Of a stretch of DNA of 64,000 bases, positions 1 to 45,503 are shown one piece after another. Numbering within the stretch: the stretch's first letter is position 1; each line of letters opens with the position of its first letter. Made by a program: the position numbers and the translations under genes. The stretch spans positions 30,658 to 94,657 of the forward strand of contig CAYQCW010000004.1 of NCBI GenBank assembly GCA_964416155.1, in the 5' to 3' direction. Source of the stretch: an uncultured Nitrososphaerota archaeon. GTDB taxonomy: Archaea > Thermoproteota > EX4484-205 > JAAOZP01. The notes beneath the pieces are model-generated. The model saw only the letters and a list, made by a program, of their open reading frames with translations. It was not told the DNA's origin and made no database searches.

Positions 1-147
1 CAGGCTAGGCCGATGCTCAGAGGGGTTGTGGAGCTGGAGATAGGGCCATTGGCGAGGACGGACAGGATATTCAACATAGCTAGGAGGTTTAGAGATATAA
101 GGGCGGAGTACGAGGGTATGAGGGAGGCTGGGGGAGGAGAGGCTTGA
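1..147 (+). CDS. 3' end of a gene entering from the left, possibly the NurA-like partner of the downstream HerA
   Basis: Frame 1 is open from base 1 (QARPMLRGVVELEIG...EAGGGEA*); stop TGA at 145-147 overlaps the next start by 4 nt. NurA identity is inferred only from adjacency to HerA. Confidence 0.4.
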   Translation, partial: QARPMLRGVVELEIGPLARTDRIFNIARRFRDIRAEYEGMREAGGGEA

Positions 148-2153: not shown

Positions 2154-3386
2154 ATGGGGCAACTGTTAGAGATCACTTACGAGTATCTGGATTCGTTAAA
2201 ATATGTTAACGAGATTCGGAGAGAAATCATGTTGCCTGCTGCAAGTCCCGACGTAGTAGCTATAGTGGGACCAAGAAGATCCGGTAAAACTTTTCTTATG
2301 CTTAAAACAGCAAACGATATGTTAAAGAACAATAGGCAGACTGTTTACGTTTCATTCGATGAACCTTCGCTTAGAAAGATTCCTGTTAGGAGGTTTGCCG
2401 AGCTTGTGCGGAAAGAGTATCCGGAGGACAAGGTCAATCTTTTTCTCGACGAAATACAGGAATGGAAGGATTGGGATTTCAATTTAAGATGGTTACATGA
2501 TGTTAAAGATTTCACTATCTTCATTTCCGGCTCTTCTTCGTCACTGCAATCCTCAAAAATACCATCAAGATTAAGGGGAAGGTATGCTTCGAAGCTAGTA
2601 ACCCCCTTTTCATTCAGAGAGATCTGTAACTTTTCCCTGAAAACCTTCAGGGAGAAGGGTCGAGTGCAAAATGTTTTCGAGGAATACGTGAAATGGGGAG
2701 GCTTCCCTGAGGTGTGGATCTATAAGTCTAGAGAGAAAATCGTGTCATTACTCGAAACAATCTTCTACAGAGACCTTGTGGAGAGGTTTAGAATACGGAA
2801 CATGGCAGAGTTTCAAAGCATCTTCTATTTTGTTCTCTCAAACTACTCTAACTCATTCACCTGGAACTCTTTAAAAAAATTCATGGAAACACTGGATGTT
2901 AAAATCGACACTAAAACACTCATAAATTACATAAACTACATGAGTCAGGCTTTCCTAATATTCACTCTCCAGAAGTTTTCATATTCAGAAAGGGAGAAAG
3001 CAGTTTCACCGAAGAAAATCTACGTTATTGACCTTGCTTTTTCAAATCTCTTCGAAAAACCCTTAGACTTAGGCAGAAAAATGGAGAACCTAGTATTCAT
3101 CGAGCTTTTAAGAAGGCTTCAAAACAGGGCTTCTCAAGTTTTCTACCATACGACAAAAGATGGGAAGGAAGTAGATTTTATTGTTAAAACCGGCGGTCGA
3201 ATCGAACAGATAATCGAAGTATGCCATGAAGTAGACGAAGAACACGTAAAGAAGGTTGTGAAAGCAAGCGAAGAACTAGACTGTAAAAAACTGTTATGCA
3301 TCACTAGGAATCAGGAGGGCGAAACCAGAGTGAAAAATAAAGAAATAGAATACATGCCTATATGGAAATGGCTTCTCGGAGTTTAA
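2154..3386 (+). CDS. COG1373 AAA+ ATPase with C-terminal DUF4143 (PD-(D/E)xK-like) domain
   Basis: GPRRSGKT, LFLDEIQ, GGFPE, MENLVFIEL, EVDFIV...IIEV motifs; AT-rich relative to flanks. Confidence 0.9.
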   Translation: MGQLLEITYEYLDSLKYVNEIRREIMLPAASPDVVAIVGPRRSGKTFLMLKTANDMLKNNRQTVYVSFDEPSLRKIPVRRFAELVRKEYPEDKVNLFLDEIQEWKDWDFNLRWLHDVKDFTIFISGSSSSLQSSKIPSRLRGRYASKLVTPFSFREICNFSLKTFREKGRVQNVFEEYVKWGGFPEVWIYKSREKIVSLLETIFYRDLVERFRIRNMAEFQSIFYFVLSNYSNSFTWNSLKKFMETLDVKIDTKTLINYINYMSQAFLIFTLQKFSYSEREKAVSPKKIYVIDLAFSNLFEKPLDLGRKMENLVFIELLRRLQNRASQVFYHTTKDGKEVDFIVKTGGRIEQIIEVCHEVDEEHVKKVVKASEELDCKKLLCITRNQEGETRVKNKEIEYMPIWKWLLGV

Positions 3387-7757: not shown

Positions 7758-9413
7758 ATGGCTACTGCTATACCTGCAACAGTGGGTGGAACACCAGTAC
7801 TAATCCTTAAAGAGGGAAGCACTAGGACGAGGGGCAAGGAAGCCCAGAGGAACAATCTTAACGCTGCAATAACTCTCTCAGAAATAGTCCGTTCATCCCT
7901 TGGCCCAAGAGGAATGGACAAGATGCTCGTCGACTCCCTCGGGGACGTTACGATAACTAACGACGGCGCAACCATTCTGAAGGAGATGGAGATTGAGCAC
8001 CCGGCTGCGAAGATGATGGTTGAAGTCGCTAAGAGCACTGACGTTGAGGCTGGGGATGGAACAACCTCGGCGGTCGTCCTCGCTGGGGAGCTTTTGAAGA
8101 AGGCTGAGGAGCTTTTAGACATGGATGTTCATCCGACGATCATAGTGGACGGCTACAGGAGGGCCACCAGCATGGCGCTCCAGTTCCTGAAGGAGATTGC
8201 TCAAGAGGTTAAGCCGACGGACAGGGAGATCCTTAAGCTGATAGCTATGACTGCTCTGAGGAGCAAGGTTGTGAGGGAGTACAGCGACCAGCTTGCTGAG
8301 ATTGCTGTCGACGCTATTCTGAAGGTGGCGAGAGAGGAGAACGGGAAGTACATCGTTAGGCTCGACGACGTTAAGGTTGAGAAGAAGGCCGGTGGCTCAG
8401 TGATGGAGACCAAGCTGATAAACGGCATCGTTCTGGATAAGGAGATCGTCCACTCCGGAATGCCTAGAAAAATCGTTAACGCTAAAATAGCTATTCTAAA
8501 CAGCCCGCTTGAGATTGAGAAGACGGAGTTCGACGCTAAGATAAGCATCGAGAGGCCTGAGCAGATCAAGGCCTTCTTGGAGGAGGAGCAGAAGATCCTG
8601 AAGGAAATGGTTGACAAGATTGTTGAAGCAGGCGCCAACTTAGTGCTCTGCCAGAAGGGTATTGACGACATTGCTCAGCACTATCTTGCTAAAGCAGGGG
8701 TGATCGCTGTCAGAAGGGTTAAGGAGTCTGATATTGAGAAGGCTTCTAAGGCAACCGGTGCTAGGATTGTGACTAGCGTGAACGAGCTTACTAAGGACGA
8801 CCTGGGGTACGCCGGCTTAGTGGAAGAGAGGAAGGTCGGCGAGGACAAATGGGTCTTCATCGAGCAGTGCAAGGATCCGAGGTCTGTGACGATTCTGATA
8901 AGGGGTGGGACGGAGAAGATGGTGGATGAGGCTGATAGGGCTCTTCACGATGCTCTCTGCGTTGTGAAAGATGTGGTCACGTACCCGTACATAGTCGCCG
9001 GCGCTGGTGCTCCTGAGATAGAGGTTGCGATGAGAATAAGGAAGAAGGCTGAGACTATAGCTGGGAAAGAGCAGCTTGCGGTACTCAGGTTCACAGACGC
9101 GTTGGAGTCAATTCCTTCAGCGCTTGCTGAAAACGCTGGGATGGATCCGATAGACATAATCGCCGAGCTTAGGAAGCAGCATGAGTCTGGGAACAAGTGG
9201 TACGGTATCGACATCGTCTCCAAGAAGACCTCTGACAGCTGGGATAACAACGTTATTGAACCGCTGCTCGTGAAAGAGCAGATAGTGAAATCTGCTAGCG
9301 AGGCTGCAAGCATGATCCTGAGGATTGACGATGTGATTGCTGCGGGCAAGCTTAAGGAGAAGGGTCCTCCTAAGCCACCCTCTGAGGAAGGCGGTGTTGG
9401 AGAACTAGACTAA
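7758..9413 (+). CDS. thsA: Thermosome (group II chaperonin) subunit, canonical
   Basis: [28 protein letters not shown] all intact. Confidence 0.97.
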
Positions 9414-27808: not shown

Positions 27809-28831
27809 ATGGTTAGGAAGAAAGCTGAGGAAGAGAGTGAGGAGGAGTCCAGGGGCGTGGAGGTTTTCGAATCAATAGAGGACATACCCGGCATAGGTCC
27901 CTCTACTGCCGCTAAGCTCAAGGAGCTTGGTTACACTACTGTTGAAGCATTGGCAACGGCCACTGTAAACGAGCTTGTAAGCGGAGGCATTCCTGATAAG
28001 ACTGCCGCCAAGATAATATCGTTGGCGAGAAGCAGCATCGAGGTTAAATTCGTTTCAGCCCTAGACATTCTTAAGCAGCGGGAGCACATTCAGAAGCTCA
28101 CTACGGGGAGTAAGAAGCTGGATGCTCTCCTAGGGGGAGGGCTGGAGACAATGACGATAACCGAGTTCTTCGGGGAGTATGGGACGGGAAAATCCCAGAT
28201 AAGCCATCAGCTTGCTGTTAATGTTCAGCTACCCGTGGAGAGAGGGGGTTTAAACGGAAACGTTGTCTACATCGATACTGAAAACAGTTTCAGGCCTGAG
28301 CGTATTGTTGCGATGGCTAAGTATCTGAAACTGGATCAGATTAAGACTGTTGAAAACATCACCGTGGCGGAAGCCTTTAACTCGGACCACCAGGTACTCA
28401 TAGCTGAGCGTCTCGACGAAATCATTAAGAGTAAGAGGGTGAAGCTCGTCATAGTCGACTCCCTGACGACCCACTTCAGAAGCGAATACTTGGGTAGAGA
28501 GAGCCTTGTTAAAAGACAGCAGAAGCTGAACGCTCACCTTCATAGGCTTGACCGTCTTTCTAAAGCCTTCAACCTTGTAATCGTTGTTACAAACCAGGTT
28601 ATGGCTAAGCCGGATGAAATCTTCGGAATGGGAGCCTATCCTGTTGGCGGCCATATTCTTGCACACAGGAGCCACACGAGAATATACCTGCGTAAGGCTA
28701 GGGGTGAACAGGGTTTGAGGGTCGCCAGGCTGATAGTTAGCCTAGACAGGCCTGAGGGAGAATGCTTGTTTAAAATAACTGAGAACGGCATAACTGACGT
28801 TGAGGAAGAAGCCTATGGTGAAGAAGGCTAG
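27809..28831 (+). CDS. radA: DNA repair and recombination protein RadA
   Basis: N-terminal HhH, GEYGTGKS, YIDTENSFRPER, TNQVMAKP. Confidence 0.97.
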   Translation: MVRKKAEEESEEESRGVEVFESIEDIPGIGPSTAAKLKELGYTTVEALATATVNELVSGGIPDKTAAKIISLARSSIEVKFVSALDILKQREHIQKLTTGSKKLDALLGGGLETMTITEFFGEYGTGKSQISHQLAVNVQLPVERGGLNGNVVYIDTENSFRPERIVAMAKYLKLDQIKTVENITVAEAFNSDHQVLIAERLDEIIKSKRVKLVIVDSLTTHFRSEYLGRESLVKRQQKLNAHLHRLDRLSKAFNLVIVVTNQVMAKPDEIFGMGAYPVGGHILAHRSHTRIYLRKARGEQGLRVARLIVSLDRPEGECLFKITENGITDVEEEAYGEEG

Positions 28832-33539: not shown

Positions 33540-34493
33540 ATGGCTACTTTTATTTCTCTACCAATAGTATTTCTAGAAATGAAGCAGGAAACTGTTCAAC
33601 CATTTGCCTCAGCCAAATGTCCAAACTGCAACTCCCAGCTGGTTAACTCGGAGAACGAGCTTGTCTGCAGCAAGTGTGGCCTAGTAGTCGACTTCCTAGA
33701 CAAGTACGTCGCATCCTACGATCAGGATCACGCGTTTCATGGAGACTCCTGCTACGGGAGTCTGATTGCGGAAAGCGGTTTCAAAAACGATGTCTCTAGG
33801 CTTCAGAGAAACATTTTCTACTCGGCCACTAGGAAGGAGAACGAGCTGAAATGGATAATAGACAAGGTCTGTAGCAATTTTCACCTGGGGCCTTCGATAA
33901 GATTGTTTTCACATAGTATTGGTTTAACACTGCTGCGTAATTCTAAAAGTAGAAAGATCAACTTGGCGGCAGTTGCAACATACTCCGTGGTCAGCGCAGC
34001 GAGGTCCTGCAGTTTAAACATAGTTCCACACTATAAGAAGATACAGGCGTACCTGTGCGGCATAGGTTTTAAAATCCGGCCGAGGGACCTTTTCAACGCG
34101 ATTTCTATTGCAAGGGAAGTTGGGATTGTGGAAGCAAAATACGATACTGGTAAAACAATCAACGAGATAATATCTCTGGTAATGAGGAATAATCGGAAGC
34201 TTCAGGCCCTCGCTGAAAGAGAAATGTTTCTAAACATTCTTAGGGCGGTGTCAATCAGGCTCTTCAACGATTTAAAATCTAAGCACTATTATTTTCATGG
34301 TAAAAACCCCATGATATGTTTAGCAGCCGCTGTCTACGCAGCTTCGAAGGAGGCTGCGGCTATGTTGAAAATCAAAAATCCTGTGACTCAGAGGGAGCTA
34401 GCTGGGTACGTGGGGTATGCTGAGTACAGCGTTAGAGAAACATATGAAGAGTTTTTCGGAAAAACTCTCAACCTGTTGAATCCTGCCGTTTAA
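33540..34493 (+). CDS. Divergent TFB/TFIIB paralog
   Basis: CPNC...LVCSKCGLVV ribbon; GKNPMICLAAAVY and VTQRELAGYVGYAEYSVR cyclin-repeat motifs. Confidence 0.8.
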   Translation: MATFISLPIVFLEMKQETVQPFASAKCPNCNSQLVNSENELVCSKCGLVVDFLDKYVASYDQDHAFHGDSCYGSLIAESGFKNDVSRLQRNIFYSATRKENELKWIIDKVCSNFHLGPSIRLFSHSIGLTLLRNSKSRKINLAAVATYSVVSAARSCSLNIVPHYKKIQAYLCGIGFKIRPRDLFNAISIAREVGIVEAKYDTGKTINEIISLVMRNNRKLQALAEREMFLNILRAVSIRLFNDLKSKHYYFHGKNPMICLAAAVYAASKEAAAMLKIKNPVTQRELAGYVGYAEYSVRETYEEFFGKTLNLLNPAV

Positions 34494-34917
34494 CCGTGTT
34501 GTGAACACGTTCGAATACGAAGAAGCCTTCAGAATCGCTCACGCGGAGCCTGCACGCGATTTCTACTGAAAACTCTTCCTCACGGGTTTCAATAGTATAG
34601 TCAAACTGGACAATTATTTCAAACTCTTTGAAACATTCTTCATGAAGATTTTCCGTTTTGAAACGTTCCATCTTGTCCATCAGGTTTTTCTTAAACTCGG
34701 AGAAATTGCCTCGGGAAGAACCCATGCTTACTTCCGCAATGTTTTCCACGCTGTTGAAAATATCTTTTGCCAAAGAATCGGCTAAAAGGAGCCTCGCCCT
34801 CTGTTTTAAAAAGCCTACTAGAAGGATGCTTCCTGATTGAACCGTCAGGTTCACTATCAACAATGACACCATGATGATTGTCGAGCCGACTATAGGTATC
34901 ATCCATGTTTTAATCAT
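34468..34917 (-). CDS. Single N-terminal TM protein, minor pilin/Tad accessory-like
   Basis: One hydrophobic N-terminal helix; last gene of a coupled minus-strand run. Confidence 0.55.
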   Translation of the reverse strand: MIKTWMIPIVGSTIIMVSLLIVNLTVQSGSILLVGFLKQRARLLLADSLAKDIFNSVENIAEVSMGSSRGNFSEFKKNLMDKMERFKTENLHEECFKEFEIIVQFDYTIETREEEFSVEIACRLRVSDSEGFFVFERVHNTVKRQDSTG

Positions 34918-35297
34918 TTTTCAACACTCACCACTATACACACGGTATCTTCGCTGCTGACTCTGATTATTCGAACAAGTCTAGTGCACTGTTCCCAAGG
35001 ATTATTCGAGGCCTGCTTGTTCTCCACCACTATTCTTCCATTCTTCTTACTCAGAAGCTCTATTTTGCTCCACTCAACCCTGTTAGAGCTCAGGATACTG
35101 ATGACTTCGCGGAGCAGGGCTTCAGAATCAGCCAGGTTTCGAGGAGGAATCTTCGCGAGGCTGCTCTCTAAAGCCAAGTCTGTTCTCATCGTTTCTATTT
35201 TTTCAAACAGGGTTCTGATGCTTTGCGAGACGGTTATTATCGGTATTAACAGGAGAGTGCTTAGGACGATTGCAATAATGCCCTCTAAAAACTGCAT
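34914..35297 (-). CDS. Pilin-like protein without a leader
   Basis: Starts MQFLEGIIAIVL (Glu at +5) followed by a TM helix. Confidence 0.55.
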   Translation of the reverse strand: MQFLEGIIAIVLSTLLLIPIITVSQSIRTLFEKIETMRTDLALESSLAKIPPRNLADSEALLREVISILSSNRVEWSKIELLSKKNGRIVVENKQASNNPWEQCTRLVRIIRVSSEDTVCIVVSVEK

Positions 35298-35303
35298 TCT
35301 TCT

Positions 35304-35435
35304 TCACACTTGCTCGGCCAACCAGGTTAGTGTGGAAACATTATTTAAGGTGAGAAGAACAGCCAACGCTAGTTCTAAGACTAGCAGAAAAATCAGGAAT
35401 GATGAAGCTAGGAAATCTAGAAGCTTGTCGCTCAT
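35304..35435 (-). CDS. 43-aa hydrophobic protein (not in the ORF track)
   Basis: MSDKLLDFLASSFLIFLLVLELALAVLLTLNNVSTLTWLAEQV; ATG overlaps the upstream stop. Confidence 0.5.
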   Translation of the reverse strand: MSDKLLDFLASSFLIFLLVLELALAVLLTLNNVSTLTWLAEQV

Positions 35436-35812
35436 CGTTTGGTTAAAACAAACCCGTTCTCCGATGTTTTAACAGAGTATGCTCCACCCGGCTCTAAAGA
35501 CACGTTGTTAAACCTGTATTTCCAGGTCCCGTGGAAGACTCGAATCCCATGAATCACGATAGAGTATTCATTATCCTTAAGCAGGATCGTATAGTTGAAC
35601 AAGAGTGTTCTTGGAATAGATAGTGTGAATTCCCCCCCATACTCTGCTGAAAGATCAGCATGTTTCCCTATTAAAAACAGGATGCTGTTAAAAACATTGT
35701 TTAAGCAAACTGTTCTAACAGTATTTGCGGCGTAGAGCAGTGTAAAGCTTGCCGTGAGTGTTAAAGATATCCAGAGAGCGTCTTTCAAATGTTCCTCGAG
35801 AATCTCGTTCAA
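35432..35812 (-). CDS. Single-TM pilin-like protein
   Basis: MNEILEE...WISLTLTASFTLLYAA followed by a beta-rich domain. Confidence 0.55.
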   Translation of the reverse strand: MNEILEEHLKDALWISLTLTASFTLLYAANTVRTVCLNNVFNSILFLIGKHADLSAEYGGEFTLSIPRTLLFNYTILLKDNEYSIVIHGIRVFHGTWKYRFNNVSLEPGGAYSVKTSENGFVLTKR

Positions 35813-35823
35813 GCTGTTTCACC

Positions 35824-35967
35824 CTAGCCTGCAGCAAGCAGTTTAGCCACGCTTTCATAAATCTGCTTAAGCAGGGGTATCACTCGCTCCGATAAGTAGG
35901 CTAAGCCTAGCCCAAGGAGTACTGTAGAAAGCAGTATTAGCAAGGTTTTCTCAAGCAGGCTGCTCAA
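35824..35967 (-). CDS. 47-aa Flp-like small pilin candidate (not in the ORF track)
   Basis: GGAGGG SD then TTG; MSSLLEKTLLILLSTVLLGLGLAYLSERVIPLLKQIYESVAKLLAAG. Confidence 0.55.
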   Translation of the reverse strand: MSSLLEKTLLILLSTVLLGLGLAYLSERVIPLLKQIYESVAKLLAAG

Positions 35968-36212
35968 AGGTATCCCTCCTCTTGAGCCGTTCAGCCTCCG
36001 CGTGCATTTTTAACCCCGAGTTATACCAGGGTCACGAGCCTTATAACCGCCAACGGGTCAGTATTGGTGAATAAATAGGTTTTCCACCATTCTGGTTTGT
36101 AAATGATCTTTCAAGACGACCTGCTGGTTAACGCAATACTTCAGGAGATAGAGGATTTAAAGGTTAGCATAGGGAAGTTGAACACTAGAATTTTAAATCT
36201 TGAGAAGAAGTA

Positions 36213-38129
36213 TTGGGAGTTGAGCGAGCTCGTAAAGGTTGCTCCAAAATGAGCAGTGTCCAACAGGATTCTCTACATGCTGGTTTTGAAAGTAAATGGG
36301 TTTTGGACAGTAGAGGTAAAACCTTGTATCTGTCATACCCGGAATCCCAGGAAACGGATCCGTGGCTTATCTGCGACATTATGCATAAGCTCACGTATTT
36401 CAAGCCGGAGAGAATACTGGTGTGTGCTAAAGGGCGTTTGCTAGAAGTCCGGGAGCAATATGTTGAACTGTTAAAGGATTTCTCTAGAGGGGTTGAAAAG
36501 GAGAAGGAGGAGCTTTACAAAAGACTTTTGGAGAAACATGATGAGAATATCCTTGATTTGAAAACTGCTCGAGGAATGCTTTCCATCAGGCCATTCTATG
36601 GGATCGTATATTCTCAGCAGTTACTGCGATTTCCAGTATCCGTTGAACTTTTCTCTGAACGCAGTCTTCAAGAATTTGAAATGGCTTTTCAAGGCTCGCG
36701 GCAGGCTGAACACAGCTACGTGCTTGGCCACTTGTTGTACTGTGTGAATGCTAAAGACGGTTCCTACAGGGTTTTTTTCAAGTCTGACGATTACTTCTGG
36801 GTTGAAAAGGAGCTTTCAAAAATTCTGCGCCTCGCCTACTCTAAGAGAATGCTTAGAACCGGGAGGCTTAAAGACATATTTAGCTACAGGTTTAAAGCCG
36901 GCTTAAGGTTTCTGAAGGTTTTAACGCAGGTGGAGGCGGGGGAGCCGGCAAGCTCCATAGTTAGGCATGCCGTATACTCTTCCATAGGCTTGTCGAAAAT
37001 ATATCCCTTGTTGAATGATAGCGGTGTTCAGTGTTTCTTCCTAGACGATGTTGGGAAGAGGGTTTACGTTAACCATGCCCGTTTCGGAAGGCTTAGTACA
37101 AACCTCGTGTTTAAAGAAAGGGATTTTGAAAGCCTCGTGTCACTCGTGAAAAGAGAGTCCGGCCTAAACCTGGATTACTCTAACCCCTCGATTAAAACCG
37201 CTATTGTCTTCGACAGGGTTTTGACAAGGGTGTCAATAGATGTTCCTCCCCTAGCTTTGGGAAAAGGCGTATTAGATGTGCGGAAACACGTGACTAACGT
37301 GCTTCACCTAAGGGACCTTTTAGAATCAGGATATTTTTCAGTTGAGTCTGCAGCGTTCCTAATCTTCGCCATTCTCAACCGTGCCAACATATCTATCGTG
37401 GGGGAGCCGAATTCTGGGAAAACTTCTCTTCTGAACTTTCTAAGCTACTTCGCTCCCTCATGGTGGCGTATAGTGCATGTTGAGGATGCTCTTGAAACGC
37501 TTCCCCCAAGGGTTTTCGACCAGCATAGAGTAGTGTACGTTGTGGAGCCGTTTGAAACCAAGGGGGGAAGCAACACTAAGACACTTGAAATAATTAAGGC
37601 GCTTCACAGGACTCCCTCCTACCTTATACTGGGGGAGGTTCAAACCGAGAGTCATGTTAAGGCAATGTTCCGCGCTGTCTCAGCCGGCCTGAGAATAATG
37701 CATACTGCGCACGCCGCTTCCAGCAAGGGCTTCGTTAAAAGGCTTTTAGACGTTTACAATATTCCTAGAATACTGCTTTCGGAGCTTGATCTGCTAATCG
37801 TCATGAAGAAGCTTGAAGCAAATAATTTTGTTAAACGGTTTATGGGGGAAATTGCTGTGATAGATGGAGATTCGAGTCTCACCGAAATATTTTCGAGGCA
37901 TACTGTTACGGATGAGTTGTGCTGCTACCCTGGACTGGAGGTCTCAGGATTCTTCGGGAAACTGGCTGGTTTAAGCTGCATCGATGAGAAAAATCTTTAC
38001 GGAGAGTATGAAGCTATCTTGAAAGTGGTTGAGGAGAACCGTTTTTCAGATAATTTCACCGTTAAAAGGCTTGTCCAAAAAATCCATGTGGGAATGCTTG
38101 GGAAGATTGGAGGGGGTTTTCAAAGATGA
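36213..38129 (+). CDS. Type IV pilus/Tad assembly ATPase (VirB11/CpaF family)
   Basis: GEPNSGKT, Asp box VEDALE, LILGEVQ, His box MHTAHA. Confidence 0.9.
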   Translation: MGVERARKGCSKMSSVQQDSLHAGFESKWVLDSRGKTLYLSYPESQETDPWLICDIMHKLTYFKPERILVCAKGRLLEVREQYVELLKDFSRGVEKEKEELYKRLLEKHDENILDLKTARGMLSIRPFYGIVYSQQLLRFPVSVELFSERSLQEFEMAFQGSRQAEHSYVLGHLLYCVNAKDGSYRVFFKSDDYFWVEKELSKILRLAYSKRMLRTGRLKDIFSYRFKAGLRFLKVLTQVEAGEPASSIVRHAVYSSIGLSKIYPLLNDSGVQCFFLDDVGKRVYVNHARFGRLSTNLVFKERDFESLVSLVKRESGLNLDYSNPSIKTAIVFDRVLTRVSIDVPPLALGKGVLDVRKHVTNVLHLRDLLESGYFSVESAAFLIFAILNRANISIVGEPNSGKTSLLNFLSYFAPSWWRIVHVEDALETLPPRVFDQHRVVYVVEPFETKGGSNTKTLEIIKALHRTPSYLILGEVQTESHVKAMFRAVSAGLRIMHTAHAASSKGFVKRLLDVYNIPRILLSELDLLIVMKKLEANNFVKRFMGEIAVIDGDSSLTEIFSRHTVTDELCCYPGLEVSGFFGKLAGLSCIDEKNLYGEYEAILKVVEENRFSDNFTVKRLVQKIHVGMLGKIGGGFQR

Positions 38130-38692
38130 TCTTGCGAGGGCTTTTAAGGAAAATTTTTAACGATGAGGATAAGCATTCCTATGAAGTAACAACTCCGATC
38201 GTGGCTGAAATAATAGTGGCCCAATCCGCATATAACAACCTTTACAGAACTATTCGCGACGTTTCAAGTAAAGACTATGAGGTTTTTTCCACAGCCCTTT
38301 TTCATTGTCTGGAACAGAGTCTGAACGGTGCGGATATTCAGAGAATGTTGAACAAGGCTCTCCGGAAACACCCGGATCTGCTGAACGCGATTACTCATGT
38401 GGTTCAAAACACTCCTAGGCAGAGAGTCGATCCGGAGGAGACTCTAATGCTGTTCAGAATCCTTGAGTCGAAAGCCAGGATGAAATACCGTGAGTACACG
38501 TTGAAGCTTAACTCCATGGTTTCCCTATTCTTCTTCTACGTGTTTCTCGTTCCAACACCGATAATATTGGCCTCTGGGTTTTCACCCGAGGCTTCAATCA
38601 TCATGTTCTCCGGGTTTTTCATCATAAGCATGATGGTATTCAGAATCTTTTTCAACAAGATCGGAAGGGTTAGGAGTGTCCTGCTGGGTTGA
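38126..38692 (+). CDS. TadB/TadC-like platform membrane protein
   Basis: Cytoplasmic helical domain plus two C-terminal TMs; coupled to the ATPase. Confidence 0.55.
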   Translation: MILRGLLRKIFNDEDKHSYEVTTPIVAEIIVAQSAYNNLYRTIRDVSSKDYEVFSTALFHCLEQSLNGADIQRMLNKALRKHPDLLNAITHVVQNTPRQRVDPEETLMLFRILESKARMKYREYTLKLNSMVSLFFFYVFLVPTPIILASGFSPEASIIMFSGFFIISMMVFRIFFNKIGRVRSVLLG

Positions 38693-39486
38693 GGAAAACA
38701 TACTTTTTTCTAGTAATGGGGATTGGGACGCTTGCCTTTTTAATGCCCTTGTTAAGGCTTAAACCGTATGTCGCATTTTCGATTCAGCTCTTAGTCTACA
38801 CGCTAATGCTGTCTCAGAGGAAGGAAGACGGTGCTGAAAACCTTTCGGAGACTGTTGACTTGACACTAGTAGGGAGGTTGGCGGATAACCCTGAAAACTT
38901 GAACTTTGAGGGTTCCGTTTTCAAAACGCTGTCGGATTTAGGTTTTGAAACCGATTACCGTGGTCTCTTCGAAAAGGCTTTGCGCAGAAGCATAAATGGG
39001 CATCCGGTGGAGAAAACTTTAATCTCACATTCCAGTGGGCTTGACCAAACAGGCAGGCTTCTAATCAGGCTTGTTTCAAGCCTTTTCACCAAGGATGCCA
39101 TGTCAGCTAAAAAGATCCTGAAAAGCTATGTGATCCTACTCAGGGAAAACGAGAATTTGAAGAACGAGAGGAGAACTCTGTTTTCAGAAGCCAGGTTCAG
39201 GGCTAGAATAATGCTTATAGTAAGCGCCTCCTTGATGGGTTTCCTCTCGGCTGCAACTCCTGTTCTCAACGCTTTATCGGCTTTTTCAGCCACACCCGTT
39301 TTACAGAGTGATTCCTCGCTGCTTCTTTCTCTCATCCTATACGTTTTAAGCATCTCTATACTTGTCCACCGCTCCCTAGCCTTTAGAAACCTCGCTAAAA
39401 CAATGCTTTTCTCAGCGTTAAGCTTCGCTGCTTCATTCCTAGTTTTCAACGGTATGATCAGCAGCTTCATGGTGCAAATCAACTGA
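38689..39486 (+). CDS. TadB/TadC-like platform membrane protein
   Basis: N-terminal TMs, helical domain, EARFRARIMLIV then TMs. Confidence 0.55.
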   Translation: MRKTYFFLVMGIGTLAFLMPLLRLKPYVAFSIQLLVYTLMLSQRKEDGAENLSETVDLTLVGRLADNPENLNFEGSVFKTLSDLGFETDYRGLFEKALRRSINGHPVEKTLISHSSGLDQTGRLLIRLVSSLFTKDAMSAKKILKSYVILLRENENLKNERRTLFSEARFRARIMLIVSASLMGFLSAATPVLNALSAFSATPVLQSDSSLLLSLILYVLSISILVHRSLAFRNLAKTMLFSALSFAASFLVFNGMISSFMVQIN

Positions 39487-39532
39487 CGAAGCTATTGGCG
39501 CTTAAATTGTTTAGGAACACCGTAATAGTGGG

Positions 39533-39736
39533 TTGAAGAGGATCTTGAAAACCAGGCTAAGGGGGTCGCAGCTCATAGAGGAGGGTCTGCTGATAGTGTT
39601 GGCTCTAGTCATGCTCGGAGCCGTCTTCGGGGTTTCAAAGCAAATCGTGGACAACATATCTGGGTTCTTCAACTCTCTAATAGAGGAAGTGGGCAACCTA
39701 GGTGAAAGCCTATTCGGCTGGCTGCTGCCTAAATAA
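39533..39736 (+). CDS. Type IV pilin with class III signal peptide
   Basis: MKRILKTRLRG|SQLIEEGLLIVLALVML: basic leader, Gly at -1, Glu at +5, hydrophobic stretch. Confidence 0.85.
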   Translation: MKRILKTRLRGSQLIEEGLLIVLALVMLGAVFGVSKQIVDNISGFFNSLIEEVGNLGESLFGWLLPK

Positions 39737-41595
39737 TGGCTGACGGCAGGAATAGAAAGCTGGATCCTACATACGTGGCCGTAATCATCATACTGCTGAT
39801 AAGCATGCTGAAAAACTTTCCAGGTTTCCAGTTTTTTCTAAGCCTTCCCTCGCCAGGGGTTACCCTCTCCCTAATGATGCTTCTGCTCCCCGTAGCGCTT
39901 CTCCTGCTTTACAGGCGGCCGAGCCTAGTTGAACACTTGTCTTTCAGAGAAAACGAGGACTACTTCATCGCGGAAACAGGTTCGTCGCAGCTTGTAGTGG
40001 GGGCGGTTTCAATGCTTCCTGAGGAGGGATCTGGTGGAATCAAGGTTGGAGAGGAGAACTTCTATTTGAAGACCAAGAGCCTTGTCAACGGGCTTCTTAA
40101 AGCAGGCGTCTCAATAACGTTTGTGACCCATATGCTTCCCTCGGGAAACCCTGATGAAGATGTTCTTCTCGCCCAGCTGCTCGTGGTCAGCAGGAAAATA
40201 GGGCGCGAAGGGGTTGATGAGGCGGTTAAGATGCTTGGGACAGATTTTGAAAAAGTAAAGTCTATCTACAACACTGTTTTCCCAGAGTTAAGACTCGTCA
40301 GGCTGAGAGGGGGTGAACTGTTTAAATACTTGAGGAGGATCCTGGTGGATGATTCTTTTACTCGGCGAGTTGACGCCAGCAGCTCTGTCAAGCTTCTTAC
40401 ACCACATATGCCTGATGACGAGCTCTGTTTTCTCGCATCCCCCTACGGGCCCTCTGCCGATCGTGTTGAAACCAAGGAGACTATTAGCCTCGGGTCGATT
40501 GTTTTCAACGGTTCAAGCATCATCCCGCTTAGGCTTGAGGCAGACAAGTTTAAGAAGCATATGGCTGTCTACGGCTCAACAGGATCCGGTAAGACGACAA
40601 CTGTAAAACATGTTTTAAGGGAGCTCGCTGAGCTCGGATACCCTTTTATGGTTTTAGACTGGCATAACGAGTATAGGCGTCTGACTGAGGAGCTTAACGG
40701 CATTGTTCTCACACCCGGTTCTTTCTCCCTGGACATACTTAACCCAGTTGAGGCTAACAGTCTGTCTGAGCACGTGGCTATAGTCACAGATATTTTCGAC
40801 CAGATATACGGCTTCACCCCCTCCCAATCATACATGTTTAGAGAAGTGCTTCTGCAAACGCTCACGGTGAAAGAGCTTGGAATTCCTGCTTCAAACTCTC
40901 TCAGGGGGCTTGTAGAAGCCTTGGAGAGATGGAGCATTAAATCGTTCTACGAGAACGAGACAAAGTTCGCACTTCTGAGAAGACTGAGGCCATTGGTAAC
41001 TGGGCAGAGTAGAGAAATATTCTGCAACACGAGTAAGCTGGTGAAAATCGGCGACATTATAGATAGGAACGTGGTTTTCGAGCTGGGAGACATTGTCGAA
41101 GTGGATATTCGTAAACTGGTTTCACTATTCATCTTGGCGCTACTCTACGAGTTTAGGGTGAAAAACAAGAACGCCAGGAGCCACTTTACTGTTGTCGAGG
41201 AGGCGCACAACATTCTGCCGTATAGGAGGCGTGACTCACCGCCGGGGATTGCTGAAAAACTTTTCTTGGAGATGAGAAAGTTTAACGAGAGCCTTATACT
41301 TGTGTCACAGTTCCCATCCCAAATCTCCCCTGAAATAGTCAAGTCCACAAGCCTGAAAATATCCCACAGGATATGCGAGGGGGAGGAGTCAAGAGTTTTG
41401 ACAGACATAATGGGTCTTTCACAGGGGGACTATGAGCTTCTAAAGAAGCAGACACCGGGATACGGCTTCTTAACGGCGGAGGGCTTTTCTAAACCTATGC
41501 TTTTCACCATAGGGCTTAACGGAAGAGGAAGCCCATTTTACTGGGATTCTTCAGAAGGAAGTCAACCCAGTCGACCACGTCGCCCCTACACCTGA
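39736..41595 (+). CDS. Membrane-anchored HerA/VirB4-like ATPase (CedB-like architecture)
   Basis: Two N-terminal TMs, GSTGSGKT, VLDWHNEY, VVEEAHN, EMRKF. Confidence 0.85.
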   Translation: MADGRNRKLDPTYVAVIIILLISMLKNFPGFQFFLSLPSPGVTLSLMMLLLPVALLLLYRRPSLVEHLSFRENEDYFIAETGSSQLVVGAVSMLPEEGSGGIKVGEENFYLKTKSLVNGLLKAGVSITFVTHMLPSGNPDEDVLLAQLLVVSRKIGREGVDEAVKMLGTDFEKVKSIYNTVFPELRLVRLRGGELFKYLRRILVDDSFTRRVDASSSVKLLTPHMPDDELCFLASPYGPSADRVETKETISLGSIVFNGSSIIPLRLEADKFKKHMAVYGSTGSGKTTTVKHVLRELAELGYPFMVLDWHNEYRRLTEELNGIVLTPGSFSLDILNPVEANSLSEHVAIVTDIFDQIYGFTPSQSYMFREVLLQTLTVKELGIPASNSLRGLVEALERWSIKSFYENETKFALLRRLRPLVTGQSREIFCNTSKLVKIGDIIDRNVVFELGDIVEVDIRKLVSLFILALLYEFRVKNKNARSHFTVVEEAHNILPYRRRDSPPGIAEKLFLEMRKFNESLILVSQFPSQISPEIVKSTSLKISHRICEGEESRVLTDIMGLSQGDYELLKKQTPGYGFLTAEGFSKPMLFTIGLNGRGSPFYWDSSEGSQPSRPRRPYT

Positions 41596-42211: not shown

Positions 42212-42286
42212 GCTCCGATGGTGTAGCCCGGTCAAGCATACGAGCCTCTCGAGCTCGGGGCCCGGGTTCAAATCCCGGTCGGAGCA
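42212..42286 (+). tRNA. tRNA-Glu(CTC)
   Basis: Cloverleaf with anticodon loop CTCTCGA. Confidence 0.96.
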
Positions 42287-42661: not shown

Positions 42662-43840
42662 TTGAAATCTGGATCGAACCGCACATTGCTAACAATATCC
42701 GTAACCGGTGGGCTGGTATGGGCCTCATTTGCACCCCTATCCATTCTGTTTGGTGTCTATCTAAGGTCCCTAGGTCTATCCTATGCTTCTATCGGCCTGC
42801 TTATGTCTGTCTCCAGCCTTCTCTCCCCCTTCCTCCAACCCTTGTTTGGCGCTGTTGCCGATAAATATCGGAACAGGAAAGTAATAGTTTCCATATCGCT
42901 CTTCTTCAGAAGCTTAGCCTACCTGCTGCTAATGCTGTCTACAGATGTTTTGGGCATGTCGATATGTTACGTTGCCGCCGGGTTATTTCTAGCAGGATTC
43001 ATGCCGCTTGCCCAATCCATGGTTGCAGATCTCTCTGAAGACAATAGGCTTGGTGTCCATATGGGAAGATATAGATTGTTCGGATCCATAGGTTGGGCAG
43101 CTGCTTGCATTCTTACTGGTTTGCTTGCCAGAGACAACCTGTGGAACATTTTTCCACTCGCCTTAGCGTTCTCCACCATTTCCTTTCTGGTAAGTTTGTT
43201 TCTGCCAAGTGTCGAGGGAATGGACGGGAGTCACCACGGCATTACTCAGCGCAGAGTGTCCTCTCTTAAGCTTGCCGCTTGCTTCACGGCAAGCATCTTA
43301 ATCTCGGGAGTAGGCATGGGAGCAACATCCTCCTTCCTTACTATTTCACTGTCGCAGCTGGGCAGCGATCCTTTTTTCATGAGTCTCGTGATCGCCATAG
43401 GGGCTCTTCTCGAAGTTCCTGCCATGTACTTAGGTGGTTGGCTATCCGATAGGATCGGGGGTCTTCCCGTCTTGGTTTTCGGAGAAGTAGGCCTAGGCAT
43501 GGTTTACTGGCTCTACGGGACCGTAGAGAACCTCTACAGCTATCTGCTGATTCAGAGTGTTCGGGGGATTCTTTACGCCTTATACACGGTCTCAGGAATG
43601 TCGATTAGCTCAAGCCTTGGTGGAAGCGGGAGAAGGGGGCTTTACGCAGGTTTTTACAACCTCTCGTTTCAACTTGGAATGGCCTCCGGCCCCTATTTAG
43701 GGGGTTTGGTCTCAGATTACCGTGGATTGTGGGCCATGTTCGCTCTGTCTTCAGCTTTATCATTGTTCTCTACAGTACTTCTCATGCCTTGGATGACGTT
43801 TTTCTTTAAAAGAAAAAATAGCCGGGATTCCTTGAAGTGA
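42662..43840 (+). CDS. MFS transporter
   Basis: About 12 TMs; GAVADKYRNRK and GWLSDRIGG motif A repeats. Confidence 0.92.
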   Translation: MKSGSNRTLLTISVTGGLVWASFAPLSILFGVYLRSLGLSYASIGLLMSVSSLLSPFLQPLFGAVADKYRNRKVIVSISLFFRSLAYLLLMLSTDVLGMSICYVAAGLFLAGFMPLAQSMVADLSEDNRLGVHMGRYRLFGSIGWAAACILTGLLARDNLWNIFPLALAFSTISFLVSLFLPSVEGMDGSHHGITQRRVSSLKLAACFTASILISGVGMGATSSFLTISLSQLGSDPFFMSLVIAIGALLEVPAMYLGGWLSDRIGGLPVLVFGEVGLGMVYWLYGTVENLYSYLLIQSVRGILYALYTVSGMSISSSLGGSGRRGLYAGFYNLSFQLGMASGPYLGGLVSDYRGLWAMFALSSALSLFSTVLLMPWMTFFFKRKNSRDSLK

Positions 43841-43892: not shown

Positions 43893-45503
43893 TTAGCTTT
43901 TCTCCTCAGTCTTGGGTTTCACAGTCAGTATTACTTCGTCGACACCTATTATCGTCGTAGCCAGTTCCACGGCGGAAACCAGCCAGCTTTTAACGACAAG
44001 ATATGGGTCGACTACTTTTCCGTCTAGATCGGCAACTTCTCTGCTGACAGCATCTATCCCATATCCTGAGCCATCTTTAGAATGCTTGCTGTTAAGCAGG
44101 GCCATCGTTGTCAGAGGCTTCATGCCAACGTTTGTGGCAAGGGTTCTTACAAGAGATTCGACGCTTTCGGCAAAAGCCTCGTATATCAGCCTATCCTCCT
44201 CAGACTGGTTCTCCGCGCTTCTTCTCAACGCGCGTCCTATCTCAAGTAGCTCCGCCCCGCCGCCAACAACGCATCTCGGATCCTTATACAGGCTTAGGAC
44301 TGCTGAGAGCGCGTGCTTAAACTCTCTCTCATACTCCTTCAAAAGATCCTCGTTAACGCTTCTCAGCAGTACTGAAACGGCCTTAGGCTCGCGGCAGCCC
44401 TCTACGAAAACTATTTTCTCGTTTTCGAAAACCTCCTCTTTGACGATGTCTGCCCTGCCAAGCTTGTCCTCAGAAATATCCTCCGGGTCTGAAACGATCT
44501 TCCCGTAGGTTGCCCTCTCAAGTCTCTCCATGTCTGATCTTTTAACCCGTCTCACCGCAGTGATACTGTTTTTATAGAGGTATTGCTGCGCGAGCTCGTC
44601 TATGCCCTTCTGGCAGAAAACAACGTTGGCCCCAGACTTAACTATCCTGTCAACCCTTTCCCTTATCATTTCCTCCTCTTCCCTAATGAACCCGCGGAGC
44701 TCCTCAGTAGTCTTAACCTCTATTTCAGTCGATATCTCCGTCTTCTTAACCTCCAGAGCATAGTCTATCAGCGCGATCCTAGCGTCTTTAACCGTTTTAC
44801 TCATGTTCGGGTGGACGACTTCCTTGTCGACTATAACACCGTTGACAAGCCTTGAGTCTAAAACCCCGTGTCCACGCTTCCTAACTATGCTCACCCAGTC
44901 TATGTCTGCGTAATACCCTCCATCCCTTTTTTCAACGATCCTTTCAGCGGTGCTCAGGACGATTTCAGCGATCCTCCTCCTCTCCTCCGGGGAAGAGAAG
45001 AAAGCGATCGCTGTTTCAGCGATCCTGTTCAAAGCCTCCCTGTCTGAAAAGTCAACCGGCTTAGCGTCCTTCTCGAGCTTTTCAAGAGCCTCGGTTAAAG
45101 CCTTGTTGAAGCCTCTAACTATTGAAATCGGGCTTATTCCCTGCTTGTACAGGCTGTACGCGTTTCTAACCAGGTCGCAGGTTAAAAGTATTAGCGAAGT
45201 CGTGCCGTCTCCGATTTCCTTCTCAAGAGCCTTAGCCGCGTCTATTATTATCTTGCCAACTGGGTGTTCAATGTTCGCCTCGCTGAGAATAGTGACTCCG
45301 GTCTTAGTCACCGTGACGTCTCCGACTGTGCCCACTAGGAGCTTGTTGAAGCCTCTTGGACCGTAGGCAGTTCTGACAACCTCGCCTATTACGAGCGACG
45401 CCACAATATTGTTTTCATAAGCCTCCTCCTTGCTTCTCCTCACGGTCGTTTCTTTAAGCACTATTGCTGGTCTACTCTGTCCATAGGCCATTTTTCGTAT
45501 CAC
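43893..45503 (-). CDS. Divergent thermosome subunit
   Basis: GPRGFNK, GDGTTS, NGVIVDKEVVHP, QKGIDE; catalytic Asp positions substituted. Confidence 0.93.
   Translation of the reverse strand: MIRKMAYGQSRPAIVLKETTVRRSKEEAYENNIVASLVIGEVVRTAYGPRGFNKLLVGTVGDVTVTKTGVTILSEANIEHPVGKIIIDAAKALEKEIGDGTTSLILLTCDLVRNAYSLYKQGISPISIVRGFNKALTEALEKLEKDAKPVDFSDREALNRIAETAIAFFSSPEERRRIAEIVLSTAERIVEKRDGGYYADIDWVSIVRKRGHGVLDSRLVNGVIVDKEVVHPNMSKTVKDARIALIDYALEVKKTEISTEIEVKTTEELRGFIREEEEMIRERVDRIVKSGANVVFCQKGIDELAQQYLYKNSITAVRRVKRSDMERLERATYGKIVSDPEDISEDKLGRADIVKEEVFENEKIVFVEGCREPKAVSVLLRSVNEDLLKEYEREFKHALSAVLSLYKDPRCVVGGGAELLEIGRALRRSAENQSEEDRLIYEAFAESVESLVRTLATNVGMKPLTTMALLNSKHSKDGSGYGIDAVSREVADLDGKVVDPYLVVKSWLVSAVELATTIIGVDEVILTVKPKTEEKS

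Follow-up and report, generated by a model that had tools for sequence, protein, structure and literature searches.

Can a type IV filament hand DNA to a motor that draws it into an archaeal cell? How archaea move DNA across their membranes is largely open, the Ced and Ted importers being known only in Thermoprotei-type crenarchaea, and the question is raised by a locus at positions 33540-41595 of a 64-kb stretch of contig CAYQCW010000004.1 from an uncultured archaeon (the window, always meant at its full length). Here the genes of a compact pilus-assembly machine, a membrane-anchored ATPase of the HerA superfamily and a diverged paralogue of the transcription factor TFB (TFIIB) lie together. 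Our preferred reading, to which we give a probability of roughly 45%, is that a type IV filament is coupled to a DNA translocase of the CedD family, making the locus a candidate pilus-coupled DNA-uptake machine.

An earlier note on this DNA, made from the sequence alone, had reported a VirB11-type ATPase, two platform-like proteins, a pilin and a HerA-type ATPase with two transmembrane (TM) segments in one tight run, co-located with a TFB paralogue. All of these genes are present at the positions given above, the run is coupled and the co-location stands, but the list of plus-strand genes was incomplete, a sixth small gene (36103-36252) having been missed. The plus-strand operon comprises, in order, genes for a 49-aa coiled-coil protein, a T2SSE/FlaI-type ATPase, membrane proteins of 188 and 265 aa, a 67-aa prepilin and a 619-aa ATPase. 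These genes are translationally coupled, the successive junctions being three 4-nt overlaps, a 46-nt gap and a 1-nt overlap. Divergent from them runs a minus-strand operon whose products have 47, 126, 43, 127 and 149 aa. This divergent run of five small single-TM genes had likewise been described correctly, except that it was said to end on the TFB gene; the latter lies on the plus strand and converges on the minus-strand operon, the 3′ ends overlapping by 26 nt. The TFB gene must have a promoter of its own, beside an Lsm gene and divergent from it, and be co-transcribed with neither operon. The features of the locus are as follows.

33540-34493, plus strand: diverged full-length TFB/TFIIB paralogue, 317 aa (Zn_Ribbon_TF match, AlphaFold2 (AF2) model)
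34468-34917, minus strand: 149-aa protein with an N-terminal TM helix, final gene of the minus-strand operon (open reading frame (ORF) and hydropathy)
34914-35297, minus strand: 127-aa protein, N-terminus MQFLE5G followed by a TM helix (ORF and hydropathy)
35304-35435, minus strand: 43-aa membrane peptide (ORF and hydropathy)
35432-35812, minus strand: 126-aa protein with an acidic N-terminus and a weakly hydrophobic helix (ORF)
35824-35967, minus strand: 47-aa leaderless pilin-like protein, opening the minus-strand operon (N-terminus conservation)
35968-36102: putative divergent promoter region (alignment of nine group A loci)
36103-36252, plus strand: 49-aa soluble coiled-coil protein, opening the plus-strand operon (ORF)
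36249-38129, plus strand: type IV filament assembly ATPase of the FlaI/TadA/VirB11 family, 626 aa (T2SSE and FlaI matches)
38126-38692, plus strand: first platform-like membrane protein, 188 aa (hydropathy)
38689-39486, plus strand: second platform protein, T2SSF-like, 265 aa (Pfam match of an orthologue)
39533-39736, plus strand: Flp-like prepilin, 67 aa, about 56 aa when mature (motif inspection)
39736-41595, plus strand: membrane-anchored CedD-family ATPase of HerA/FtsK type, 619 aa (NCBIfam CedD and DUF87 matches)

The CedD-type ATPase and the adjoining pilin gene

Among the NCBIfam hidden Markov models (HMMs), the best match of the ATPase at 39736-41595 is CedD (NF053655; 188.1 bits, E 2.6e-55, residues 242-591), followed by HerA_Thermprot (51.5 bits), a second HerA model (38.9 bits) and VirB4 (26 bits); the equivalog cut-offs are 600 bits for CedD and 800 and 970 bits for the HerA models. 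The earlier note had called the translocase CedB-like. The CedB model (NF041017, cut-off 700 bits) gives no match at E ≤ 0.1, and we reject a CedB identity on the HMM scores. CedD is the top curated match in every lineage, at 188, 176, 156 and 138 bits against 42-52 bits for HerA and 24 bits or less for CedB. Its ranking above HerA holds for the orthologues of groups B and C (deep groups of the locus, see below), the group C orthologue being the one that reaches 24 bits on CedB. The ATPase does not group with the repair protein HerA, an outcome that the note had considered (51 against 188 bits on CedD), and a place in the HerA-NurA-Mre11-Rad50 system is rejected because the scores lie below the cut-offs and the neighbours are pilus genes and a kinase gene. 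In a profile search of 1.84 billion representatives, 1010 relatives reached E ≤ 1e-30. A scan of ten from the top 150 gave CedD as best match in every case, with HerA at 110 bits or less, and four of the ten were bona fide CedD proteins over their full length (610-746 bits). On these profile scores the window ATPase is a member of a broadly drawn CedD clade but not of the curated equivalog. CedB and CedD themselves have been placed in the HerA clade, with a VirB4-like structure (PMC11868833).

The architecture is likewise that of CedD, with a TM anchor, an N-terminal domain and an ATPase domain. Hydropathy places two hydrophobic segments within residues 13-61, and the AF2 model shows helices at 11-59, an alpha/beta N-terminal domain at 65-203 and the ATPase domain at 249-592, the last with predicted local distance difference test (pLDDT) values of 80-95 and confident over residues 270-590. 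Walker A, Walker B (E489) and R514 are invariant. Pfam finds a DUF87/HerA domain (61.6 bits) and, weakly, TraG P-loop and TrwB_AAD_bind. Foldseek rates HerA and the C-terminal domain of VirB4 as near-equal matches of the model (E 2e-17 vs 9e-17), so the fold cannot decide the subfamily; in a PDB sequence search with the ATPase profile, S. solfataricus HerA is nearest (E 2e-35), followed by anti-phage HerAs, VirB4 and FtsK. The only other HerA-superfamily ORF in the window is unrelated (144-1934, plus strand, 596 aa). Its best NCBIfam match is an anti-phage-associated HerA at 78 bits, far below the cut-off, and it reaches just 48 bits on CedD, so the CedD signal of 39736-41595 is specific. It is followed by a 410-aa ORF without a family match (2154-3386, plus strand), and the two may form a HerA-partner defence pair.

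The link between ATPase and pilus genes extends far beyond the window. A metagenome scan with the pilin alignment gave 48 loci, in which synteny was scored with phmmer. In all 41 loci with at least 1 kb of downstream sequence the CedD-like gene directly follows the pilin gene, the pilin stop and the ATPase start overlapping or lying within about 20 nt of each other. A T2SSE ATPase gene lies upstream of the pilin wherever there is enough upstream sequence (31/31), and the TFB paralogue stands at the Lsm side in each of the 26 loci with at least 8 kb upstream, in two of them without its zinc ribbon. Neither the ATPase nor the TFB linkage, both proposed in the earlier note from this one genome, is peculiar to it. 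The same operon occurs in L081, L083 and L084, whose contexts came from the search of representatives.

At least three or four deep groups can be told apart among the loci, with ATPase identities of 33-41%. Between the window and groups B and C, identity is 58-69% for the pilin, 42-50% for Lsm, 41-44% for the thermosome, 37-41% for T2SSE, 33% for the CedD-like protein, about 23% for the platform proteins and 20-24% for TFB; for L009, L058 and L074 the comparison is 58-69% for the pilin against 41-50% for thermosome, Lsm and beta-CASP. By these sequence comparisons the pilin is the best conserved protein of the whole neighbourhood, a constraint that may point to an internal pseudopilus or to close contact with the product of the adjoining ATPase gene. 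L085 has its T2SSE gene and a fused 377-aa platform gene 6 kb off, across housekeeping genes, and the pilin gene (A/SPLLEEG; slashes mark cleavage sites) still adjoins the CedD-like gene, whose product there has no TM helices. This survival, together with the adjacency in 41 of 41 loci, marks the pilin-CedD pair as the invariant core. L085 also encodes a presenilin-family GxGD protease (PF01080; 4337-5167, plus strand), which sits in a housekeeping context between the displaced T2SSE and platform genes and the pair. The basal relative L086 has no pilus genes.

The chromosomal position is conserved as well. The order in the window is PAC2, Lsm, locus, AAA_18, thermosome, and across distant lineages of the TACK archaea (Thaumarchaeota, Aigarchaeota, Crenarchaeota and Korarchaeota) a neighbourhood of PAN/PAC2/TGT/Lsm/RPB8 ... 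thermosome/histone/S17e/Urm1/RLI/FBPase/TIM is kept (L006/L007, L084, L085 and the window flanks). The CedD-type gene is a regular member of this neighbourhood between PAC2 and thermosome/Urm1, with the same setting in L006, L084 and L085. L006/L007 encode, between Lsm-RPB8 and the thermosome, a 356-aa CedD-like protein (278 bits on CedD) but no pilus proteins, and L008 likewise has a CedD-like gene in that neighbourhood without type IV pilus (T4P) genes. The conserved order matches the Urm1 neighbourhood of S. acidocaldarius, where CedD is Saci_0667, thermosome beta Saci_0666, PAC2 Saci0658 and PAN Saci0656 (PMC4569737, PMC10653856, PMC11823120). Since TACK lineages share this neighbourhood, the CedD-type gene has long held a fixed place; the pilus module and the TFB paralogue are found directly upstream of it in the lineages covered by this analysis.

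The flanks of the locus carry RadA-like, AspRS, L40e, beta-CASP, PAC2 and Lsm genes on one side and AAA_18 kinase, tRNA-Glu, MFS transporter and thermosome subunit genes on the other, and the GC content of the locus (0.43-0.48) is near that of the flanks. The window is archaeal. The locus is chromosomal, vertically inherited and typical of Brockarchaeota-type archaea and several related deep lineages; submitters label the metagenome-assembled genomes with relatives of its proteins Brockarchaeota or Thermoproteota, only some members of groups B, C and D being so labelled. A mobile-element origin is rejected because the viral contig collection holds no pilin relative, and the housekeeping flanks and similar GC add support. 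The locus shows no recognisable relaxase, integrase or mobile-element signature, in line with the earlier note for the first two. The RadA-type recombinase gene (27809-28831, plus strand), identified by eye from its Walker A motif and overall sequence, lies 5 kb upstream in a housekeeping context. Two thermosome paralogues are encoded in the window, at 7758-9413 (plus strand) and 43893-45503 (minus strand), and the second belongs to the conserved neighbourhood of the locus. Between it and the AAA_18 kinase gene sit tRNA-Glu (42212-42286) and the MFS transporter gene (42662-43840), apparently inserted locally into the conserved neighbourhood; the synteny table shows the MFS gene in no more than a few close relatives (L033-L035, L039).

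Pilus module, putative divergent promoter and TFB paralogue

The best reading of the module is a compact type IV filament machine in the style of Epd and Tad, because it has two separate platform-like genes and a very short pilin. Its assembly ATPase passes the Pfam T2SSE model (PF00437) with 45.7 bits against a cut-off of 24.9, and its best NCBIfam match is FlaI (96 bits; TadA 55). The Walker A (GEPNSGKT), Walker B (ILGEVQ) and His box (HTAHA) motifs are intact, and there is a long lineage-specific N-terminal region. The orthologues, 53-92% identical, are annotated at 626 aa, and for this reason the start at 36249, not 36213, is the most likely one.

Of the two membrane proteins, that of 188 aa has a cytoplasmic helical domain and two C-terminal TM segments, and that of 265 aa has one N-terminal TM segment, a cytoplasmic domain and about three C-terminal TM segments; these topologies suit a T2SSF platform split over two genes. 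Neither of the window's proteins matches Pfam T2SSF, and a PDB profile search with the 265-aa protein found no match. The group B orthologue of the latter (L058:9148-9945) passes T2SSF (27.6 vs 25.2 bits, E 3e-6), and the group C orthologue (L074) matches it weakly (E 0.024). The 188-aa protein, whose group C orthologue has an extra N-terminal TM segment, shows weak profile similarity to the 265-aa protein over the motif ...l..slnG.d... (hhalign E 0.012) and is probably a T2SSF half. In L010 a distant relative of the ATPase is followed by two T2SSF genes; a profile comparison of these two proteins with the window's two membrane proteins was not significant.

The prepilin begins MKRILKTRLRG/SQLIE5EGLLIVLALVMLGAVFGV, with a basic leader and, after RG/SQLIEEG, about 20 hydrophobic residues; to judge from its sequence it would be cleaved at RG/SQLIEEG. 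The site is invariant in more than 50 orthologues (the alignment and the 48 metagenome loci), in which the leader closes with G or A and is followed by S-Q-L-[IV]-E-E-G and a hydrophobic helix, and the Glu at +5 is the Flp pattern. The protein has no Pfam match, including to the Flp and class III signal models, and none in NCBIfam. We also considered it as a VirB3-like adaptor, which is less likely given the [KR][GA]/SQLxEEG site and a peptidase-like gene in the sister lineages. This gene, of 186-211 aa and multi-TM, heads the minus-strand operon in 22 of 22 group B and C loci (iterated search), as in L009:9212-9772(-), L058:5968-6555(-), L074:5419-6054(-) and 19 more. In its product the first helix carries an invariant Asp, and a G-x-[GA]-D motif and, at the C-terminus, a VPFIP motif are also present; the product scores weakly on Pfam A24 (E 0.03 and 0.39) and finds no match in a PDB profile search. 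These motifs make it a candidate divergent GxGD-type prepilin peptidase. The window's group does not have the gene at the locus.

In the minus-strand operon an N-terminal hydrophobic helix is clear in four of the five proteins and weaker in that of 126 aa. The 47-aa protein begins M-S-S-L-L-E-K and its orthologues M-[SGA]-x-L-[LIV]-E-K, an N-terminus kept across groups A, B and C and in L081. Removal of the Met would leave a Glu at +5, in the same register as in the mature pilin (S-Q-L-I-E5), so that the protein resembles a leaderless pilin. The 127-aa protein is also pilin-like without a leader, and its gene overlaps the adjoining one by 4 nt. The 149-aa protein, a candidate minor pilin or assembly protein, has orthologues in all group A loci, and the 43-aa peptide is conserved in group A. 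Together these small proteins are probably minor pilin-like or assembly subunits. On the other strand, orthologues of the 49-aa coiled-coil gene, whose 3′ end overlaps the start of the ATPase gene, are called in L001-L005 and L009 and are also seen in groups B and C. Neither the small proteins nor the coiled-coil protein match Pfam or NCBIfam.

Between the two operons, the region 35968-36102 contains the boxes CTTATAACCGCCAAC (36040-36054) and ATTGGTGAATAAATA (36063-36077), which are invariant in nine aligned group A loci whose proteins are 50-60% identical. The boxes flank an inverted repeat, CCAAY-N8-10-ATTGG, and each is unique in the window; related boxes occur in groups B and C. A TATA-like ATAAATA about 26 nt ahead of the first ATG implies a leaderless mRNA. 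From these sequence features the region probably acts as a divergent promoter.

The TFB paralogue passes the Pfam zinc ribbon model (PF08271, Zn_Ribbon_TF) narrowly, with 29.9 bits against a cut-off of 29. The four Cys of the ribbon are conserved, and the AF2 model shows a three-stranded ribbon at residues 33-52 and cyclin folds at 98-194 and 203-310, joined by a ribbon-core linker (residues 53-93, the place of a B-reader/B-linker) with pLDDT below 50 and a length that varies between groups. Foldseek ranks TFIIB of pre-initiation complexes and the core of P. woesei TFB highest (1d3u, 1ais; TM score 0.54-0.56). Scores on standard models are low (17 bits on the Pfam TFIIB repeat, under the cut-off; 29.5 bits on NCBIfam TFB, cut-off 384), the profile of its orthologues finds canonical TFBs at about 1e-17, and a motif, AEYSVRETYEE, is conserved in the family. 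The protein is full-length and strongly diverged, and presumably not a general factor. The earlier comparison with TFB3 does not hold: TFB3 of Sulfolobales is short, with a truncated C-terminal domain and without B-finger and helix-turn-helix (PMC6101591), whereas the paralogue here has 317 aa with a zinc ribbon and both cyclin repeats, and we reject a TFB3 identity. In an AT-rich Brockarchaeota subgroup (L062/L063, 4118-4930, plus strand) the TFB paralogue has 270 aa and no zinc ribbon (family profile E 5.7e-26). TFIIB homologues (arCOG01981, arCOG05559) within archaeal T4P loci were already described in 2016 by Makarova, Koonin and Albers (PMC4858521), and the TFB-T4P linkage is therefore not new. 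The locus offers a clean case for a lineage-specific TFB role, with one paralogue, one conserved putative divergent promoter and one operon pair.

Proposed DNA uptake and competing explanations

How might such a locus work? We infer that a filament is formed, that DNA is its substrate, that the DNA travels inwards and that the TFB paralogue has a part in control; the inducible DNA transfer put forward in the earlier note is likewise conjectural. The assembly ATPase and platform proteins would build a short filament or pseudopilus from the pilin, with the minor subunits priming it. This filament would capture DNA or reach a partner cell, bringing DNA to the membrane, where the CedD-like ring, held by its own two TM helices beside the filament base, would pull it into the cytoplasm using ATP. 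The linked TFB paralogue would direct or modulate transcription from the conserved divergent promoter. The catalytic residues of both the CedD-like and the T2SSE ATPase are intact. The part given to the ring resembles that of CedD in the Sulfolobales Ced importer and, as an analogy, that of ComFA and similar motors that work behind competence pili in bacteria. Both S. acidocaldarius and S. islandicus require CedD to import DNA (PMC11823120, PMC11868833); the protein is TFB3-dependent and UV-induced (PMC11823120, PMC11868833, PMC6101591). The gene for TedD is part of the Ted pilus locus (PMC11823120). In M. maripaludis natural transformation depends on the Epd pilus, and the DNA transporter of archaea is not known (PMC10133366). 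We hold more tentatively, and as somewhat unlikely, that the pilin-CedD pair is the core of an unrecognised DNA-translocation machine in which a Flp-like pseudopilus, and not a Ced/Ted pilus of VirB2 type, feeds a CedD-family ring that serves as the long-sought motor for archaeal DNA uptake at the cytoplasmic membrane, CedD motors being interchangeable between filaments like those of type IV secretion systems (T4SS) and of T4P, and the TFB paralogue switching the machine on.

Several points weigh against DNA uptake. The 188 bits of the ATPase are far under the 600-bit CedD equivalog cut-off, and only the ATPase domain aligns (CedD model positions 191-524), the N-terminal domain being unrelated in sequence to that of Sulfolobales CedD. 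A neighbour-joining tree without support values and with one outgroup inside the ingroup, hence a rough picture only, puts the T4P-linked ATPases in a region apart from bona fide CedD, from which their function may have diverged. The CedD-like gene might also fill the slot of the second, non-translocating ATPase that T4P systems often have (TadZ, FlaH). Conservation above that of housekeeping proteins, as this pilin shows, is unexpected for an exposed pilus. A search of the locus and of the 64-kb window found no prepilin peptidase, no DNA-binding receptor or nuclease was recognised in the locus, and neither was a CedA/VirB6-like or ComEC-like channel, CedA-like proteins not having been searched for. 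The molecular role of CedD itself is still hypothetical, and the organisms are uncultured.

The main rival to DNA uptake is an adhesive or surface filament of the Epd/Tad kind, in which the CedD-like protein would serve as a secondary ATPase with a structural, gating, positioning or retraction role, like TadZ or FlaH, and move no DNA. We regard this as a serious possibility, if on the whole a doubtful one. Epd and Tad loci regularly have a second ATPase beside the main one, and the Epd and Tad pili of studied organisms are adhesins (PMC6668835); the differing N-terminal domain, the separation of the T4P-linked clade from bona fide CedD and the failure of Pfam and NCBIfam to reveal a DNA channel, receptor or nuclease in the locus are also in its favour. 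However, TadZ is of MinD/ParA type and FlaH belongs to another arCOG, and neither has been described as a TM-anchored ring translocase (PMC6668835), whereas the nearest characterised relatives of the window ATPase are needed for DNA import (PMC11868833, PMC11823120). Exposed adhesive pilins, moreover, usually evolve fast, and this pilin is more conserved than the thermosome.

Mere adjacency is improbable as an explanation. On this account a CedD gene long fixed beside thermosome and Urm1 had the T4P module and the TFB paralogue inserted alongside it, with independent functions, in keeping with the constant order of the flanking housekeeping genes and with the CedD-like genes that occupy the neighbourhood without T4P genes in L006 and L008 (other TACK lineages) and in S. 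acidocaldarius (PMC4569737). It sits badly with the overlap or spacing of at most about 20 nt between pilin stop and ATPase start in 41/41 loci, with the intact pilin-CedD pair where the rest of the module is displaced (L085), and with the T4P-linked ATPases having their own N-terminal domain and clustering together, as co-evolution with the module predicts. We see equally little likelihood in export, whether by a conjugation-like donor apparatus or as protein or nucleoprotein secretion, with the CedD-like ATPase as a VirD4-type coupling protein. The weak TraG P-loop and TrwB_AAD_bind matches would suit such a role, a VirD4-like role has been proposed for CedD (PMC11823120), and the HerA-like TdtA/HepA export DNA in Thermus transjugation (cited in PMC11868833). 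Yet S. islandicus needs CedD for import only (PMC11868833), and a chromosomal, syntenic locus that is absent from viral contigs and shows no relaxase, integrase or mobile-element signature argues against it.

Relation to known DNA importers and pili

With CedD and TedD of the Ced and Ted import systems (Sulfolobales, Desulfurococcales, Thermoproteales) the window ATPase has in common a TM anchor, an N-terminal domain and a HerA/VirB4-type ATPase. CedD is its best curated HMM match and Saci_0667 has the same thermosome/Urm1 neighbourhood; TedD resembles it in being encoded beside pilus-system genes. Unlike CedD, it reaches 188 rather than 600 bits, has an N-terminal domain that cannot be aligned and falls in a separate region of the tree. 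The partner differs too, being a type IV filament (FlaI/T2SSF/Flp-like) and not a pilus of VirB2/VirB6/VirB4 type; no CedA, CedB or Ted genes were seen in the window, CedA-like proteins again not having been searched for.

The filament itself is closest in kind to the Epd pilus of M. maripaludis and the bacterial Tad (Flp) pilus. Like them it has two platform-like genes, each probably of a single domain, an ATPase of FlaI/TadA type and a very short pilin whose residue +5 is Glu; two platform genes and a very short pilin are hallmarks of the Epd-like/Tad clade (Denise et al., PMC6668835). In contrast to these systems, the locus has no FlaH- or TadZ-type second ATPase, a CedD-type ring ATPase standing in that place, its minor subunits are without leader peptides, there is no peptidase gene in the window's locus, and the pilin has no Pfam Flp match.

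Bacterial competence systems (Com/T4P pseudopilus, ComEC, and a motor of ComFA or PriA type) follow the same logic, a filament bringing DNA and an ATPase at the cytoplasmic face moving it, and Thermus transjugation likewise has HerA-family motors (TdtA/HepA) alongside T4P. These likenesses are no more than analogies. The locus has no ComEC, ComEA or DprA homologue, and in bacteria the motor and pilus genes do not form one operon with a pilin-motor pair. The clade 4D T4P-like systems of Pyrobaculum and Thermoproteus (PMC4858521) also have a TFIIB paralogue fixed in a TACK locus of T4P type. Their locus contains TFIIB and RPB8, and RPB8 and Lsm-type genes lie near some relatives of the locus described here (L006, L085). 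Those systems differ in having no pilins and a single protein with 4-5 TM segments, and no HerA/CedD-type ATPase has been described for them.

Each component is thus known in kind, but an Epd/Tad-like filament and a CedD-family motor as a fixed gene pair were not found in the literature searched. CedD has been surveyed in Crenarchaeota alone (46 crenarchaeal species in PMC11868833), the 2016 T4P census mentions no HerA-type ATPase in T4P loci (PMC4858521), and the literature found on Brockarchaeota with pili concerns another lineage. The pilin-motor pair occurs widely among Brockarchaeota-type archaea and related uncultured lineages, and the CedD family reaches well past the Crenarchaeota surveyed so far. 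The comparison suggests that CedD-type motors can pair with two unrelated kinds of pilus, and it makes the operon a concrete candidate for the missing transporter step of pilus-dependent uptake in competent methanogens (PMC10133366).

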